DNA from: Lachnospiraceae bacterium
GTDB taxonomy: Bacteria > Bacillota > Clostridia > Lachnospirales > Lachnospiraceae
DNA: 64,000 nucleotides
Assembly (NCBI GenBank): GCA_022769665.1
Contig: JALEIR010000066.1
Location: 3,723 to 67,722, forward strand
Direction: 5' to 3'
The notes under the pieces were generated by a model. It was not told where the DNA came from, ran no database searches, and was given only the letters and a program-made list of their open reading frames with translations. Positions 53,728 to 64,000 of the stretch are shown here, one piece after another. A program made the position numbers and the translations under genes. The number at the start of each line of letters is the position of its first letter. Position 1 is the first letter of the stretch.

Positions 53728-54438
53728 ATGTCGATGCTGGAAGTGAAGGATTTAAAGGTATATTACGGAATGATTCAGGCAATCAAAGGCGTATCTTTCC
53801 ATGTAGATGAAGGTGAGGTAATTGCACTAATCGGTGCAAACGGTGCAGGAAAAACAACAATTCTGCACACGATATCAGGACTGCTGACACCGAAAGAAGG
53901 TACTGTAACCTTCGAAGGTACGGATATTGTGAAAATACCGGGGCATAAAATTGTATCCATGGGTATGGCACATGTACCCGAAGGAAGACGTGTTTTTGCC
54001 CAACTCTCCGTACTGCAAAATCTGAAAATGGGGGCATATACAAGAAAGGATAAAGCAGAAACAGCACAGACTTTAAAAACTGTCTTTCAACGTTTCCCCA
54101 GATTGGAAGAGCGACAGAACCAGATGGCCGGAACGCTTAGCGTAGGAGAACAACAGATGCTTGCCATGGGAAGAGCACTCATGTCTCATCCTAAGATTAT
54201 TCTGATGGATGAACCCTCCATGGGACTTTCACCTATATTTGTAAATGAAATTTTTGATATTATAAAAGAAGTTAGCAATAGCGGTACGACAGTACTTCTT
54301 GTTGAACAAAATGCCAAAAAAGCGCTTTCTATTGCCGACAGAGCATATGTATTAGAGACCGGTAAAATTGTGCTGGAGGGAAAAGCACAGGATTTGCTGA
54401 ACAATGATTCCATTAAAAAAGCATATTTGGGCGAGTAG
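53728..54438 (+). CDS. livF: BCAA ABC ATPase (signature motif variant LSVGE)
   Basis: GANGAGKTT, VPEGRRVF, MDEPSMG, VEQN. Confidence 0.93.
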   Translation: MSMLEVKDLKVYYGMIQAIKGVSFHVDEGEVIALIGANGAGKTTILHTISGLLTPKEGTVTFEGTDIVKIPGHKIVSMGMAHVPEGRRVFAQLSVLQNLKMGAYTRKDKAETAQTLKTVFQRFPRLEERQNQMAGTLSVGEQQMLAMGRALMSHPKIILMDEPSMGLSPIFVNEIFDIIKEVSNSGTTVLLVEQNAKKALSIADRAYVLETGKIVLEGKAQDLLNNDSIKKAYLGE

Positions 54439-56386: not shown

Positions 56387-57457
56387 CTATTTGTCATCAT
56401 ATTTTTCACGAAGATGAACAGCATTTGCCGCACGACGTCGACGCTCATCCTCCTGAGCTGCATAATGTTTTCTTGTAGTATTTACATCCTTATGTCCGAG
56501 TACGTCTGCAACAAGATAGATATCCCCGGTTTCCCGATATAGTGAAGTACCGTATGTACTTCTCAACTTATGTGGAGTAATTTTTTTAAGTGTTGTCACT
56601 CTTGAAGCATATTTCTTTACAAGATTTTCAACGGACCGTACGGACAATCTTCGATTCTGAAGCGATAAAAAAAACGCATTCTCATGGCCTTCAGCTGCGA
56701 TGATATGTTTACGTTCATCCAGGTAATCCAGGAGAGCCATTTCTACTTCATCACCAAAATAGATAACAGCCTCGTAGCCTCCTTTTCGACGTATTTTAAT
56801 ACCGTTAACATCAAAATTAATGTCCTGAATATCAAGTCCGACACATTCCGATACACGAATACCGGTTCCCAAAAGTAATGTTAGTAAAGCCACATCTCTG
56901 ATTTTTGTTTTTTTATGATATTCCAGTTCTTTTTTCGTAAGCTTTGTACCGTCTTCCACCTGGTCCAGAAGAATTGCAACTTCATTTGGTTCCAAACGAA
57001 TAATTTCTTTTTCATGCTTTTTAGGCATTGGAACAAGTGATGCAGGGTTATTTTTTATCATTTCTCCTTGAAAGAAATAATTATACATACTGCGAAGAGC
57101 AGCCAGTTTCCGTTCCTTTCCGCGTTCATCGTTTGTGATTTCTTTACCGTCTTTTTCATATAGTGAAAGATATTCCAAGTATTCTTCAATATCTCCGCGT
57201 GTAAGATTTTCTAAAATATCTATTGAAAAATCTTTTATTTCCTGTTTGGCATATATAGGATTATTCTCATGTATATACTCAAAAAAAAGCCTTAAATCAT
57301 AGGCATAAGCGAGGCGGGTACGTGAAGATGTATATTCTTCAATTCCTCGAAAAAAGTTTTTACAGAAAGAGGGCAGAGTTTCAAGAACTGCTCGCATTTT
57401 TAATATATTTTGTTTATTTTGTTCATCATGATAATTATTTGGATTCATTACTGCCAT
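56387..57457 (-). CDS. Tyrosine recombinase (XerC/XerS-like)
   Basis: Catalytic set intact: GIRVSE, RKGG, HKLR, LGH, HY. Confidence 0.9.
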   Translation of the reverse strand: MAVMNPNNYHDEQNKQNILKMRAVLETLPSFCKNFFRGIEEYTSSRTRLAYAYDLRLFFEYIHENNPIYAKQEIKDFSIDILENLTRGDIEEYLEYLSLYEKDGKEITNDERGKERKLAALRSMYNYFFQGEMIKNNPASLVPMPKKHEKEIIRLEPNEVAILLDQVEDGTKLTKKELEYHKKTKIRDVALLTLLLGTGIRVSECVGLDIQDINFDVNGIKIRRKGGYEAVIYFGDEVEMALLDYLDERKHIIAAEGHENAFFLSLQNRRLSVRSVENLVKKYASRVTTLKKITPHKLRSTYGTSLYRETGDIYLVADVLGHKDVNTTRKHYAAQEDERRRRAANAVHLREKYDDK

Positions 57458-60347: not shown

Positions 60348-61793
60348 ATGGGTCAAATTATTGCATGTATTGTAGGAGTAGTTGTTCTGTTGTTAGTTCT
60401 CATCTTTATGACAGGTTACGTTAAAGCATCACCGGATACAGCGATTATCATTTCAGGATTAAGAAAAAATCCTAAAGTTTTAATTGGTAAAGCCGGGGTA
60501 AAAATTCCTTTTCTTGAGAGAAAGGATGAACTGAACCTGCAATTGATACCGATAGATGTTAAGACATCCAATGCAGTTCCGACAGCGGATTATATAAATA
60601 TCAATGTTGACGCTACCGTAAATGTCAAAATAAGCGATAATGAAGAGAGACTTAAGCTGGCAGCACAGAATTTTCTGAATAAAAATGCCGAATATATCGG
60701 TAGAGTAGCAAGAGAGGTGCTGGAAGGCAATGTACGTGAAATAGTAGGTAAAATGGCATTGGAAGAAATGGTTTCCGATCGTCAGAAATTTGCCCTATTG
60801 GTAAAGGAAAATGCAGAACCTGATTTGGCAGCAATGGGTCTTGATATAATCAGTTTCAATGTACAGAATTTTGTTGACGGAAACGGTGTTATAGAAAATC
60901 TGGGCGTAGATAATATTGTAAAAATCCAGAAAAATGCAGCTATATCACGTGCAGAAAGCGAAAAAGAAATTGCAAAAGCCCAAGCACATGCAAAACGGGA
61001 AGCAAATGAAGCGGAAGTTAATGCTGAGTCTGAAATAGCTAAGAAACAAAATGAATTGGCTATTCAGAAGGCTGAATTAAAACGTGAGGCTGATATTAAG
61101 CAGGCAGAAGCTGATGCTGCATATAAGATTCAGGAAGAAGAGCAACGTAAGACTGTTGAAATAACAACCGCAAATGCTAATATTGCTAAGCAGGAGAAAG
61201 AAATTCTGTTAAAACAGCGTGAAGCTGAAGTTATGGAACAGGCTCTGGATGCACAAGTAAAGAAAAAGGCAGAAGCAGATAAATTTGCAAAACAGCAACA
61301 AGCTGATGCACAGTTGTATGAGCGTCAGCGCGAAGCAGAGGCAAAGAAATTTGAGACCGAAAAAGAAGCTGAAGCAATGAAAGCTCAAGCTGAAGCTAAA
61401 AAGTTTACTATGGAACAGGAAGCTGAGGGTATTCGTACAAGAGGTCTTGCTGAAGCTGAGGCAATCCGGGCAAAAGCTGTTGCAGAAGCTGAAGGTATTG
61501 AGAAAAAAGCTGAAGCTATGGCTAAGATGGGTGAGGCAGCTGTTCTGGAAATGTACTTTAAAGCATTGCCTGAGGTGGTCAAAAATGCAGCTGAGCCACT
61601 TACCGGCGTAGACAGAATTACTATGTATGGCGACGGAAACTCTTCAAAGTTAATGAAAGATATCATGGGAACCGTAGTTCAGGTAACAGATGGTTTAAAA
61701 GAATCTACCGGCGTAGATTTACAAGCTGTACTTTCCGGATTCTTGGCCGGAAAAGTAGCAACTACTGATAAAAAACCTAAGGTGGAGGAATAA
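60348..61793 (+). CDS. Flotillin/SPFH domain protein
   Basis: TM segment, SPFH domain (LEGNVREIVG), long EA-rich coiled coil. Confidence 0.92.
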   Translation: MGQIIACIVGVVVLLLVLIFMTGYVKASPDTAIIISGLRKNPKVLIGKAGVKIPFLERKDELNLQLIPIDVKTSNAVPTADYININVDATVNVKISDNEERLKLAAQNFLNKNAEYIGRVAREVLEGNVREIVGKMALEEMVSDRQKFALLVKENAEPDLAAMGLDIISFNVQNFVDGNGVIENLGVDNIVKIQKNAAISRAESEKEIAKAQAHAKREANEAEVNAESEIAKKQNELAIQKAELKREADIKQAEADAAYKIQEEEQRKTVEITTANANIAKQEKEILLKQREAEVMEQALDAQVKKKAEADKFAKQQQADAQLYERQREAEAKKFETEKEAEAMKAQAEAKKFTMEQEAEGIRTRGLAEAEAIRAKAVAEAEGIEKKAEAMAKMGEAAVLEMYFKALPEVVKNAAEPLTGVDRITMYGDGNSSKLMKDIMGTVVQVTDGLKESTGVDLQAVLSGFLAGKVATTDKKPKVEE

Positions 61794-61794
61794 A

Positions 61795-61971
61795 ATGGCA
61801 AAAGATAGATTTGAAAAAGTATATTCGCAGGGAACAATGAATGTAACAGAAATTTGGGTAGATAAAGAAACCGGTGTAAACTATATGTTTCATGCAAGTG
61901 GTTATGCCGGTGGATTAACACCATTACTTGACAGAGACGGAAAACCTGTTATTTCAACAGTTATCAGTTAG
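61795..61971 (+). CDS. Small protein, DUF6440-like (not in ORF track)
   Basis: Own translation: MAKDRFEKVYSQGTMNVTEIWVDKETGVNYMFHASGYAGGLTPLLDRDGKPVISTVIS*. RBS GGAGG lies in the end of the flotillin gene. Confidence 0.75.
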   Translation: MAKDRFEKVYSQGTMNVTEIWVDKETGVNYMFHASGYAGGLTPLLDRDGKPVISTVIS

Positions 61972-62005
61972 GCTGATAATTACTGTTAATAATATTTATA
62001 GGTAA

Positions 62006-62050
62006 GACAAAAAGCCCTCGGGTATTTTATGATCCATTGGGCTTTTTGTC
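62006..62050. terminator. Terminator-like inverted repeat at the chromosome/element junction
   Basis: GACAAAAAGCCC (62006-62017) / GGGCTTTTTGTC (62039-62050). Confidence 0.7.
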
Positions 62051-62845
62051 ATCATTTAAAGAATCATCTGAAGCATACAGGCATTCAGGGCCAACTATTC
62101 GTTAAAGGATTTCTTTATCGAACGTCGAGCAAGCGTCCAGTGGACGGTGCGCAGACCGTCGAGAGAGAGTGCAAGCGGCGTTGCCACAGACAGAAAGCTG
62201 AACCGCTCTTCCAAAGTGGAATGAGAGAGCGGGGAAGTAGAAGAAAGCAACGCCGAAGGCGCGAACGAACAGAGTTGATAAAAAGGCGGAATTCACTTCC
62301 GTCTTTTTTGTTATCAACTGTTTGATAAAGCCAACTTTAACGGGCGGACAGCCCTTGAATAGTTTGGCGACTAGGACAGGGGAACAGGTTGGGAGGCGGA
62401 TGCGTAGCGCTTCTGAACCCCTTTAGGGGTGCCTTCCACGGCGGAGCAGAGCCGACCTTCCGGAAGGGGCGGCGGGGGATAAACCGAAAGGGGGAACTCC
62501 CCCTGTGGCAAGATAACCAGATTGGGACATCTGGTATATCTTGTATAGCAGACCAAAAAAACCGAGTAACATATGCGCCCAGCGCGGATGTGTACGAAGT
62601 ACTTGGGGAGCGGCGAAAAATCCCCCCGCGCCCCCCTGCCGCACTGAAACGGTTGAGCTACGCTGCATTCAGCGCTCCTCATCCGATACGCGCTTCATGC
62701 GTTGCCAAGCGGTTGGGCAGATTCAATGCGGTTGTGAGGGGAAGCACTGGCTATCCAGATGGCAGGAAAGCTGAATTGCTGGTAAGCAGGAAGCGCTGAC
62801 AACTGGTCCCCTTCGGGTGTGGAGCTGTGGCTCACTGATTGTGGC

Positions 62846-62973
62846 AAGATATACATCTACATACAGTTGGAAAAAAGTGAGCCAAACATTTGTTTGATGC
62901 AAATCGCACTGACTTCCTTTTCTACTTCGTATGAGAAGATAGACATCTACATACAGTTGGAAAAAAATGAGCC
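62846..62973. repeat. 38-bp imperfect direct repeat x2, 90-bp period
   Basis: AAGATATACATCTACATACAGTTGGAAAAAAGTGAGCC (62846-62883) versus AAGATAGACATCTACATACAGTTGGAAAAAAATGAGCC (62936-62973), 2 mismatches. Confidence 0.9.
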
Positions 62974-63411
62974 TCCTAAAACAACAAGAAAACATACAAA
63001 AAGTATTTATGACGCTTGGCGTCTGTGCAAGGAACTTTCGCGGCATATCCTCACCGCAAGGACAGCGGCTCCGGTATTCCACGATTCCCTTGACAAACAC
63101 CACAGAGGAGCTACGCCGTCTTCGCCGACGGAAGCAAAAAAAAAGCTCGCTTCCTTCGCCTCATCCAGCATAGCACCACTGGCGCTCTGTGAGGATGGCA
63201 GTGCCTGAGAGATGGCACTGGTTAAGGGGTGCTAAAAGCGCACCCCCTAACATCCCCCGCTTGCCTCTGGAAGCAAAAAAAGAAACAAAATTTACACACA
63301 CATGGTTATGTAAATTCGCAGAAATTTGCATAGATATGTATGTGTAATTTTTTGCTTTCAAACGGGCAGAAAAGGGGAACTTTTCCTGTGCGGGGATGGA
63401 GCCCTCCGCAG

Positions 63412-63441
63412 GAGCCCCTCGGGAGAGCCCCTCGGGAGAGC
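63412..63441. repeat. 13-bp tandem repeat
   Basis: GAGCCCCTCGGGA x2 plus GAGC. Confidence 0.85.
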
Positions 63442-63494
63442 GAGCGTATATGGGGGAACTTTCCCCATATACATAGCTCGTATATTACTTTGGG
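63441..63494. other. Candidate oriT inverted repeat upstream of the relaxase
   Basis: CGAGC-GTATATGGGG-GAACTTT-CCCCATATAC-ATA-GCTCG followed by TATATTACTTTGGG, about 110 bp upstream of the relaxase ATG. Confidence 0.45.
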
Positions 63495-63605
63495 AAAACA
63501 GCAACCACCTTTTTCTGTGAATTGAGCATATGAACATAGGCGCGGAGCAAAAAAACAACGCGCGTTGTTCTAACTGGGCTATTCACAAAAAGGAGGAAAA
63601 CAAAA

Positions 63606-64000
63606 ATGAAATGCAATGTACAGAACGGACACGGAACGGCAGGACACAACAACAGGACAGACTACTCAAGCATCACTGCGGAGCACATCGACGCCGAGAG
63701 GACGAAGTACAACGTGACCTTCGTTGACAAGGACGAGCGGGCGGAGTTTGTCGCATGCTTTGACGCTTCCTGCAAGGAGTACGAAAAGTACTGCAGGAAG
63801 AAAGGTTACAAGGACAGAGCAAAGACAGCGGAGGAAATGTATGAGGAGAAGGTAACCAAACACCACAAGAAAGACGGAAGTGAGTATCTGGTGGACAGGT
63901 ACATGCACGAGAGCATTTTTCAGTTCGGGAATGCGGCAGACCTGCCAGCGGAATACCTGTCCGAAGAACAGCGGGAAAAAATAACGAAGGTGTATGAAGC
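63606..64000 (+). CDS. MOBV (Mob/Pre) relaxase / plasmid recombination protein, N-terminal part (3' truncated; not in ORF track)
   Basis: RBS AAGGAGG at 63590-63596. Own translation MKCNVQNGHGTAGHNNRTDYSSITAEHIDAERTKYNVTF...MHESIFQFGN... contains H-N-x-R and ID-x-x-RT-x-x-N, the MOBV motif I pattern. Open to the window end. Confidence 0.75.
   Translation, partial: MKCNVQNGHGTAGHNNRTDYSSITAEHIDAERTKYNVTFVDKDERAEFVACFDASCKEYEKYCRKKGYKDRAKTAEEMYEEKVTKHHKKDGSEYLVDRYMHESIFQFGNAADLPAEYLSEEQREKITKVYE

Follow-up and report, generated by a model that had tools for sequence, protein, structure and literature searches.

A one-gene MobV element at a candidate dif site of a gut Lachnospiraceae bacterium, with a conserved fold that may act as a single-stranded dif mimic

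Why should 1.5 kb of non-coding, GC-rich and densely structured DNA stand in front of a single relaxase gene? The question is raised by positions 62090-63600 of a 64,000-nt stretch, here called the window, from the genome of a Lachnospiraceae bacterium (GCA_022769665.1; 2.69 Mb, 93 contigs, 98%-complete), which corresponds to C34:3723-67722 on a contig (C34) that stops 43 nt past the window. Positions 62108-63605 are the non-coding, cis-acting body of a 2.75-kb one-gene element, designated A, which consists of these 1.5 kb and a mobV gene. The interpretation that we favour, with a probability of roughly 0.55, is that A is an element of the IMEX kind (integrative mobile elements that exploit Xer) inserted at the host dif site, and that it travels as single-stranded DNA (ssDNA) in which a folded dif mimic is recombined by the XerS-like enzyme of the host.

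Element A is bounded by a direct repeat of one arm, the left, of a host palindrome. The last host feature before the site is a terminator hairpin (62008-62049, + strand), which follows a DUF6440 gene (61795-61971) and is unchanged in empty-site contigs. The attL core, AACTATTCGTTAAAG (62093-62107, + strand), serves as left arm of the palindrome and, in the module described below, as one strand, the 5′ one, of the closing helix; element-specific DNA starts immediately after it, at 62108, and the left boundary of 62090 proposed in a preliminary description made from the sequence alone was thus nearly exact. The right border lies on a second contig (C49). Contig C34 ends in the N-terminal part of mobV and C49 ends, on its minus strand, in the C-terminal 249 aa, starting IHFDEATPHMH; a database protein (P0001, 402 aa, 99% identical) spans both contig ends with only four extra residues, and the joined gene is present in the same context on metagenome contigs. 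The assembly break inside mobV leaves only 12 nt missing, and other metagenome assemblies break at a 72-nt motif common to A and a second element, B, their contigs beginning ∼1200 nt upstream of mobV. In the joined contigs AACTATTCGTTAAAG recurs 32 nt past the mobV stop and is followed by TTGT and CTTTTGCGCATAGTT, so that an intact 34-mer is regenerated at one end of A, after mobV; CTTTTGCGCATAGTT recurs 1.1 kb further on, where it borders the NUDIX gene of C49.

The site is also found unoccupied. Same-species metagenome contigs carry GGGCC-AACTATTCGTTAAAG-TTGT-CTTTTGCGCATAGTT-TGATG between the DUF6440 and NUDIX genes, and one run holds both this empty site and the occupied left junction. Further states at the locus comprise B alone (1.1 kb), an element C alone (a different non-coding insert, of 1.52 kb), A directly before the intact 34-mer and the NUDIX gene without B, and A plus B, as in the source genome. 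Comparison with species representatives of the genus was uninformative as to an empty site, these being too diverged and not syntenic. At least 20 runs from pig or sheep gut contain A in almost the same form. A Logan contig of 2776 nt (L028) contains all of A with a 30-nt terminal overlap, and its junction, ...GCGCGAAAACCAGCCAA-ACTATTCGTTAAAG-GATTTCTTTATCG... (or, in shorter form, ...CCAGCCAA-ACTATTCGTTAAAG-GATTTC...), is the dif-like attP predicted from the borders, suggesting that it represents either an excised circle or a tandem copy of A. The 13-nt size difference of this contig is accounted for by a copy difference in a 13-nt tandem repeat, GAGCCCCTCGGGA (63411-63437, + strand), which is present in two or three copies depending on the metagenome sample. 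Direct repeats of the dif arm flank A, and no integrase is present; mobV is the sole gene of A, and no other open reading frame (ORF) of A, B, C or a fourth element, D, matches Pfam or PHROGs.

The insertion site is a 34-bp palindrome of the form 15-4-15, which can also be read as 11-6-11 (TATTCGTTAAA-GTTGTC-TTTTGCG(C/A)ATA); its pattern is AACTATTCG(T/C)NAAAG-TTGT-CTTTNNCGAATAGTT, and the intact copy is located at C49:84122-84155. Over the joined contigs the GC skew runs at +0.1 to +0.28 for 67 kb and then at -0.09 to -0.19 for 85 kb, and the strand bias of long ORFs (aa on the + and - strands) is 16367:2093 to the left and 1852:20813 to the right, with the switch at the element. With up to three mismatches allowed, 13 of the 151 genera scanned in the family have a single occurrence of the 34-mer and none has two; the reversed pattern, used as a control, gave no occurrences in the 151; in two other genera among the 13, the site lies exactly at the skew and gene-strand switch. 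A gene for a XerS-like tyrosine recombinase of 356 aa (56390-57457, - strand) lies 4.6 kb from the site and encodes the sole tyrosine recombinase found in the source genome by tblastn; orthologues are situated 2.7-3.4 kb from the site in three other genomes (2.7-5 kb over all four). The site is single-copy and conserved across genera, coincides with the switch in GC skew and is linked to the gene of a single XerS-like recombinase. These are features that published work assigns to dif and to Xer systems with one recombinase (PMC5357621; PMC9765430), and the site is accordingly taken to be the host dif at the replication terminus. The best NCBIfam match of the recombinase is XerS, but its 196 bits fall below the equivalog cut-off of 267, and the site, 2.7-5 kb away, differs from the 31-bp difSL in sequence and length, which indicates a related single-recombinase system, not XerS proper. 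The palindrome and its lone recombinase look like an undescribed dif/Xer variant of Lachnospiraceae, and a literature search found no description of a Lachnospiraceae dif with a XerS-like recombinase. Integration of A would be catalysed by this host enzyme, as the linkage of gene and site in four genomes suggests.

Since no integrase is encoded and insertion is at dif, A and its three relatives appear to fit the definition of an IMEX. The relatives B, C and D (1.1-1.5 kb) are gene-less and occupy either arm of dif. Element B (C49:82998-84121; 1.1 kb, outside the window) has the right arm directly repeated at its flanks and is oriented opposite to A, so that A and B are mutually inverted and cannot be two like-oriented elements in tandem. 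Element D (1.33 kb) occupies the homologous palindrome of Lachnospiraceae bacterium UBA5895 and is flanked by AACTATGCGCAAAAG. The cores fall into two types, TCGTT in A and C and GCGCA in B and D; the A and B types differ at 3 of 15 positions, and each is identical to one arm of dif. These relatives bear on the possibility that MobV, an HUH protein of the 'plasmid recombination enzyme' kind, inserts the transferred strand at the dif arm as a pseudo-nick, with the module serving as its recognition structure. MobV is indeed the only encoded protein, direct repeats of a nick region would also arise in this way, and relaxase-catalysed site-specific integration is known for some relaxases, for example TrwC. 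We nevertheless regard such insertion by MobV as highly improbable: B, C and D have inserted alone, without any relaxase, in other strains and in another genus, the differing cores each copy one host arm, the target is the host Xer site beside a xer gene, and the core is unlike the GTGTG-type nick of MOBV relaxases.

The four elements carry unrelated cargo, but starting at the AAAG side of the core the initial ∼420 nt are common to all of them. Minimum free energies (MFE), computed with DNA parameters for both strands and expressed as z-scores against dinucleotide shuffles, reached -3 to -8 in most sub-stretches of the locus in A, which bears out the dense structure reported: -7.7 on the + strand and -5.9 on the - strand for 62090-62370, -4.7 and -3.3 for 62480-62830, -3.3 and -4.0 for 63130-63290, -5.0 and -5.5 for 63270-63370, and -4.3 and -5.8 for 63370-63600. 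Three host coding controls gave -1.7 to +0.8, and 62371-62480 and 62830-63000, taken alone, were not significant against shuffles.

The first of the closed multibranch domains in that description proved to be real and to show covariation. It constitutes a predicted folded attP module (62108-62367, + strand, z = -7.7), and the same closed domain of ∼270 nt is the MFE structure of A, B, C and D separately. Its closing helix (P1a/P1b) is formed by the 15-nt core and an inverted copy further along, the distal copy, which a bulged hairpin of 15-17 nt interrupts; in A this copy consists of CTTTAACG at 62335-62342 and AATAGTT at 62358-62364, with the 15-nt bulged hairpin at 62343-62357 between them. 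An internal loop follows, then helix P2 (62113-62123 with 62320-62330), and the hairpins inside the domain include 62134-62146 and 62274-62318. RNAalifold, run on the four-sequence alignment, gave 59 consensus pairs, 25 of them compensated by changes on both sides, so that a lack of compensatory changes among homologues, named in the preliminary description as grounds for refutation, does not apply to this domain; 95.7% of the cells are paired, compared with 83.1% in column shuffles (0 of 500 reach 95.7%) and 36-44% when the partners are slid. Three of the compensated positions are exactly those that separate the A/C-type from the B/D-type core, and 16 compensated pairs lie in the internal helices 5, 7 and 8, which are not dif-like. 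Read as its reverse complement, the distal copy also resembles dif, and in A (GTTGGC versus GTTGTC), B and D the centre of this reading agrees with the host centre over the first 3-4 nt; the proximal centre in these three elements shows no match to it. Two inverted dif-like sites able to pair within one strand are therefore present in silico, as judged by MFE folds, covariation and site comparison. Non-Watson-Crick cells comprise 11 G.T and one A.C, and because of this bias the fold appears to have been selected on the strand that reads from core to element, which in A is the mobV sense strand.

Immediately beyond the domain is a motif of 70-90 nt conserved in the family (ATGCGTAGNNCTTCTGAACCC...GCGGAGCAGA...CTTYCGG; 62379-62466, + strand), which is 89-96% identical between A and B with diverged flanks, can be aligned in all four elements and contains a small covarying hairpin with a compensated extra pair in D; it is a candidate for a common origin of transfer (oriT) or another site for a trans-acting factor. 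Other copies of A are ∼99% identical, and covariation among them is consequently uninformative for 62470-63600. Pattern scans with the conserved motifs in GTDB representatives and JGI metagenomes recovered element D only, four other metagenome matches being chance matches inside genes.

A second part of the locus has homologues of a different kind. Regional BLAST against plasmids first matched unannotated DNA in Burkholderia, Salmonella and Lelliottia plasmids, and a query restricted to a 69-nt hairpin at 63027-63095 (- strand) retrieved 3151 plasmid records, mostly conjugative and IncF-type. The copy in F is situated ∼140 nt upstream of the DNA methylase gene of the leading region; in pBCJ2315, pBTU, a Lelliottia plasmid and an IncFIA plasmid it precedes methylase, antirestriction, ParB-nuclease or small leading-region genes in one orientation, and in a Cryobacterium (Actinobacteria) plasmid it stands beside MobC-relaxase genes. 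Among the homologues the loops of the core do not vary and the outer and apical stems show covariation; in all 12 that were folded, the minus strand has the greater stability. Frpo/ssi elements upstream of leading-region methylase genes are described as single-strand promoters and primer sites (PMC7736820; PMC9849209; PMC11541004), and the hairpin is filed here as Frpo/ssi-like on the basis of its homologues and their position. To the characterised Frpo1 and Frpo2 of F the homology is confined to the 11-mer GAATACCGGAG; a search of both arms and both strands for canonical -35 and -10 elements turned up TTGAC(A) at the hairpin base alone, with nothing that clearly reads as a -10, and the hairpin sequence was not found in literature full texts or in the supplements of PMC11541004. 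By homology, part of the locus thus probably has a single-strand function of the kind suggested in the preliminary description. Of the proposal made there, a composite cis-acting locus on folded ssDNA, the composite, cis-acting nature fits the evidence; its best-supported structured domain is, however, probably a folded dif mimic (attP) and not an oriT or single-strand origin (sso).

Several further copies of the hairpin deserve mention. That of F (L064:4010-4026; record 54009-54025) is distinct from Frpo1 and Frpo2 (L064 13549-14012 and 8161-8645, 89% alike, with GAATACCGGAG in common with the hairpin) and is possibly a third, unlisted single-strand signal of F. Within the genus, copies occur at L018:3127-3191 and L019:3167-3232 (G022:C16, 16 kb apart in the same orientation) and at L020:364-428 (G007), each ∼0.8 kb from a CI-repressor-like helix-turn-helix gene, and the pair perhaps marks another mobile element. 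A 2.6-kb Salmonella plasmid family (L003, NZ_CP130098, 2569 bp) has only mobV annotated and 1.6 kb of non-coding DNA with the same hairpin.

Under the interpretation that we favour, element A would move as ssDNA. MobV would nick at oriT, for which the AT-rich inverted repeat of 63268-63360 is the probable place, and the transfer machinery would come from a helper conjugative element. The mobV-sense strand would then fold so that its two inverted dif-like copies give a duplex resembling dif but unpaired at its centre, as CTXphi does in its attP(+). The XerS-like recombinase would make one strand exchange with dif at TTAAA^G, and replication would complete integration; the 11:1 bias of G.T over A.C is the sole hint of such direct integration of ssDNA. 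The Frpo/ssi-like hairpin would recruit RNA polymerase on ssDNA for priming or for early transcription towards mobV, and the other repeats and palindromes would act as relaxosome or regulatory sites.

A number of points weigh against this scheme. The wobbles of the module favour the + strand of the window and the hairpin, in 12 of 12 homologues, the - strand; a single transferred strand could not serve both. The module is represented by only four members, of which A and C are 82% alike in it, and the covariation accordingly comes from about three lineages; in C, it is the proximal copy and not the distal one that matches the dif centre. A and C have within the domain a hairpin with a T-run (62286-62309) that resembles an intrinsic terminator and lies upstream of the closing helix's 3′ half; it argues against a role as RNA and lends nothing to one as ssDNA. 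The element family was not found in the 400 other genera scanned (a covariance model, R1, run over 400 genera of the family and 47 loci, recovered known members only), and the circular contig could be a tandem array.

The junctions and this contig are also explained equally well, with the same junctions predicted, if a double-stranded circle integrates through the proximal dif-like site in the manner of VGJphi, LME-1 or the gonococcal genetic island. The proximal site is by itself an arm-spacer-arm palindrome, single-recombinase IMEXs with a partial dif mimic are known, LME-1 among them (PMC9765430), and the conflict of strands between hairpin and module vanishes. Such a duplex attP leaves unexplained, however, the compensatory changes in helices 5, 7 and 8 (16 pairs, none of them in dif-like sequence) and the 11:1 bias of G.T over A.C, and the 15-17-nt insert that splits the distal arm would wreck a duplex site, yet bulges out neatly in the fold. 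Integration of a duplex circle is therefore considered unlikely, as is the view that goes with it, in which the conserved ∼400 nt are protein-bound accessory arms of the cer/psi kind and the inverted arm copy is a second binding site.

The bias in wobble pairs might alternatively reflect RNA, since G.U pairs are tolerated and it is the mobV-sense strand that favours the fold. The module (62093-62470), and perhaps other domains, would in that case act as RNA, possibly as the 3′ part of an early transcript that starts from the hairpin on the incoming minus strand and runs through mobV and across the circle junction; the hairpin, lying on the opposite strand, would yield RNA of this sense, which reconciles both strand preferences. 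Against it stand the terminator-like hairpin of A and C, the lack of a promoter before the module in the integrated state, the fact that tyrosine recombinases are without a known RNA cofactor, and the result of a scan of Rfam 15, in which A, B, C and D gave nothing above the gathering score and 61500-64000 gave, at E<=1, only miRNA-like matches on the AT-rich inverted repeat. A role as RNA is thus judged improbable, and the route through an early transcript is judged so as well. The large ncRNAs offered as an alternative in the preliminary description, though possible, likewise have no match in Rfam. Recombination of a folded ssDNA mimic by the host enzyme remains the interpretation that we prefer.

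No credible coding sequence was claimed for the stretch upstream of the relaxase, and the longest ORFs in 62090-63600 are indeed of 98-136 aa, lie in overlapping frames and have no matches in Pfam or PHROGs; a decayed coding sequence is ruled out on the same grounds. The jump in GC content is likewise real, from 0.36-0.38 until 62000 to 0.48-0.57 over 62000-62900, and no sigma-70-like promoter stands out in the non-coding stretch. The relaxase downstream is of the Mob_Pre family (PF01076), starting at 63606. The 5′ part of mobV occupies 63606-64000 (+ strand) and the gene, 402 aa in full, continues on C49 after the 12-nt assembly gap; its product scores 44.7 bits against PF01076 (cut-off 25.5) and has an HxxR-like GHNNR and the HxDExxPHxH motif (IHFDEATPHMH), but at 23.8 bits does not reach the 100 of the NCBIfam MobV equivalog. 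A back-translated search found no MobV relatives in GTDB genomes, and distant homologues (∼30% identity) reside in ordinary integrase-bearing elements, not at dif.

Repeats had been reported as well, and they are real: two 38-nt direct repeats, three palindromes of the GGGGAAC(T)TTCCCC type, TGTGGCAAGATA twice and a 93-nt AT-rich inverted repeat. The last of these (I1, 63268-63360, either strand; z = -5.0/-5.5) has GTGTGT(A)AATTTT on both arms and is, by motif resemblance, a candidate for the oriT or nick region of MobV; this sequence, and GTATAGTAATGTGTGTTAAATTTT in element C, resemble the nick region of the pMV158 type. The nick-like sites of the preliminary description are likewise resemblances of motif only. 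Palindrome GGGGGAACTCCCCC, followed by TGTGGCAAGATA and an inverted repeat with a 13-bp stem, lies at 62486-62543 (+ strand; repeat families D3, D8 and D9), and similar palindromes at 63369-63390 and 63446-63472 bring the number to three, all candidates for protein- or relaxase-binding sites. The 38-nt direct repeats (62846-62883 and 62936-62973, + strand) are 95% identical, spaced 90 nt start to start, and iteron-like or operator-like. A perfect palindrome, AACAACGCGCGTTGTT (63554-63569, either strand), 21 nt before the ribosome-binding site of mobV (63590-63596), is probably an operator or terminator. The repeats outside the module and the hairpin, together with the AT-rich inverted repeat, would probably constitute oriT and control sites.

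The gene-less relatives have features of their own. In element B a promoter-like TTGACC...TGATATACT is separated by ∼100 nt from an intrinsic terminator (AAGCCCAAGGACATCCAAGGGCTTTTTT), which may mark a small RNA; CAAAT/CAAAC repeats, a GTTCGAACGTTCGAAC palindrome and a stretch that is GC-rich and dense in hairpins are present too. One plausible ORF of 77 aa without a Pfam or PHROG match was detected in element C (L047:7246-7479, - strand), and a GC hairpin with GTATAGTAATGTGTGTTAAATTTT after it gives this element what looks like an oriT of the MOBV type with no relaxase gene beside it. In element D (L051:4130-4480) more than 10 copies of (AT)GTACCACC-type words in both orientations form an iteron-like array, which may be an origin or may bind a trans-acting factor that a helper replicon provides.

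Other classes of element and of RNA were considered for the locus. A group II intron is ruled out by the core duplicated at both ends, the lack of a reverse transcriptase and the lack of an Rfam match, and an IS200/IS605 or IS110 element with a guide RNA by the lack of a transposase (no TnpA/B or IS110 gene); neither group II introns nor guide RNAs of the IS605/IS110 type, nor any other known structured RNA family, gave a covariance-model match in Rfam 15, and no tRNA or tmRNA gene was found at the locus. A transposon with terminal inverted repeats is ruled out as well, since what would be its inverted repeats are the left and right arms of the host dif. A resemblance between the joined arms and dif of the E. 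coli type was abandoned after the true arrangement became clear.

IMEXs, Frpo/ssi hairpins and MOBV relaxases are each already known. A literature search found no IMEX with a relaxase as its only gene or without any gene and, beyond filamentous phages and Proteobacteria, no paired inverted copies of dif like those of CTXphi. It is proposed, more tentatively than for element A itself, that gut Lachnospiraceae host a family of minimal Xer-exploiting elements that are delivered by conjugation as ssDNA and fold two inverted dif-like copies into a dif mimic. If true, this would be the first mechanism of the CTXphi type outside phages and outside Proteobacteria; the hijacking of dimer resolution by folded ssDNA would be a general route for conjugative DNA, not a peculiarity of vibrio phages, and elements could shed all genes, or retain a relaxase alone, and still integrate site-specifically. 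Such terminus passengers of 1-3 kb would escape searches for mobile elements that are based on integrases. The elements also point to the dif and single XerS-like recombinase of Lachnospiraceae, a major gut family, and the Frpo/ssi-like hairpin to a single-strand signal common to Proteobacteria, Actinobacteria and Firmicutes.

With MOBV plasmids of the pMV158 type and with NZ_CP130098, A has in common a single Mob_Pre relaxase gene after structured non-coding DNA, and with the latter, a Salmonella plasmid, also the hairpin, which is inverted there relative to mobV compared with A; unlike these plasmids, A has no Rep gene and no recognisable double-strand origin (dso) or sso, and is integrated at dif, not replicating. 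The Frpo/ssi elements of F, ColIb-P9 and pESBL resemble the hairpin of A in that homologous hairpins are situated ∼100-140 nt upstream of the first leading-region clusters (ssDNA methylase, antirestriction), with the same orientation to the downstream genes, a conserved mismatched core and covarying stems, whereas that of A belongs to a MOBV element of 2.75 kb in a Firmicute and lies on the strand that the attP module does not prefer. As in the XerS/difSL system of streptococci and lactococci, there is a single 356-aa recombinase near a terminus dif with quasi-symmetric, A/T-rich arms of the TTTnnCGAA type, but here the XerS score is short of the cut-off (196 versus 267 bits), the gene is not adjacent to the site, and the site is a 34-bp palindrome, not a 31-bp difSL.

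LME-1 of Legionella is an IMEX of the single-recombinase XerL/dif system with a modified and an intact dif at its flanks (PMC9765430). A resembles it and the gonococcal genetic island in having an att site that is a partial mimic of dif, and in that insertion reveals an unrecognised long-arm dif served by one recombinase; those elements are, however, tens of kb in size, have many genes and are taken to recombine as duplex, whereas A-D measure 1.1-2.75 kb and have a structured module. A further parallel is CTXphi, a filamentous phage of Vibrio cholerae whose attP(+) is formed by two inverted attP sites (attP1 and attP2) that pair in ssDNA (PMC5357621). Like CTXphi, A has no integrase, is inserted at dif and would use the host Xer system; two inverted dif-like copies with a non-homologous centre lie on one strand, 90 nt apart in CTXphi and ∼200 nt here, one of the arms has the sequence of dif, and insertion leaves an intact dif at one flank. 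The differences are that A has no phage genes and no PHROG matches but a conjugative MobV relaxase only, and relatives without genes; that its host is a Firmicute with one XerS-like recombinase rather than XerC/XerD; and that the loop between its copies is a conserved multi-hairpin domain, its distal arm has a bulged hairpin and its ssDNA step is a proposal only. A is therefore seen as working like the CTXphi class and not as a member of the filamentous phage and satellite group.

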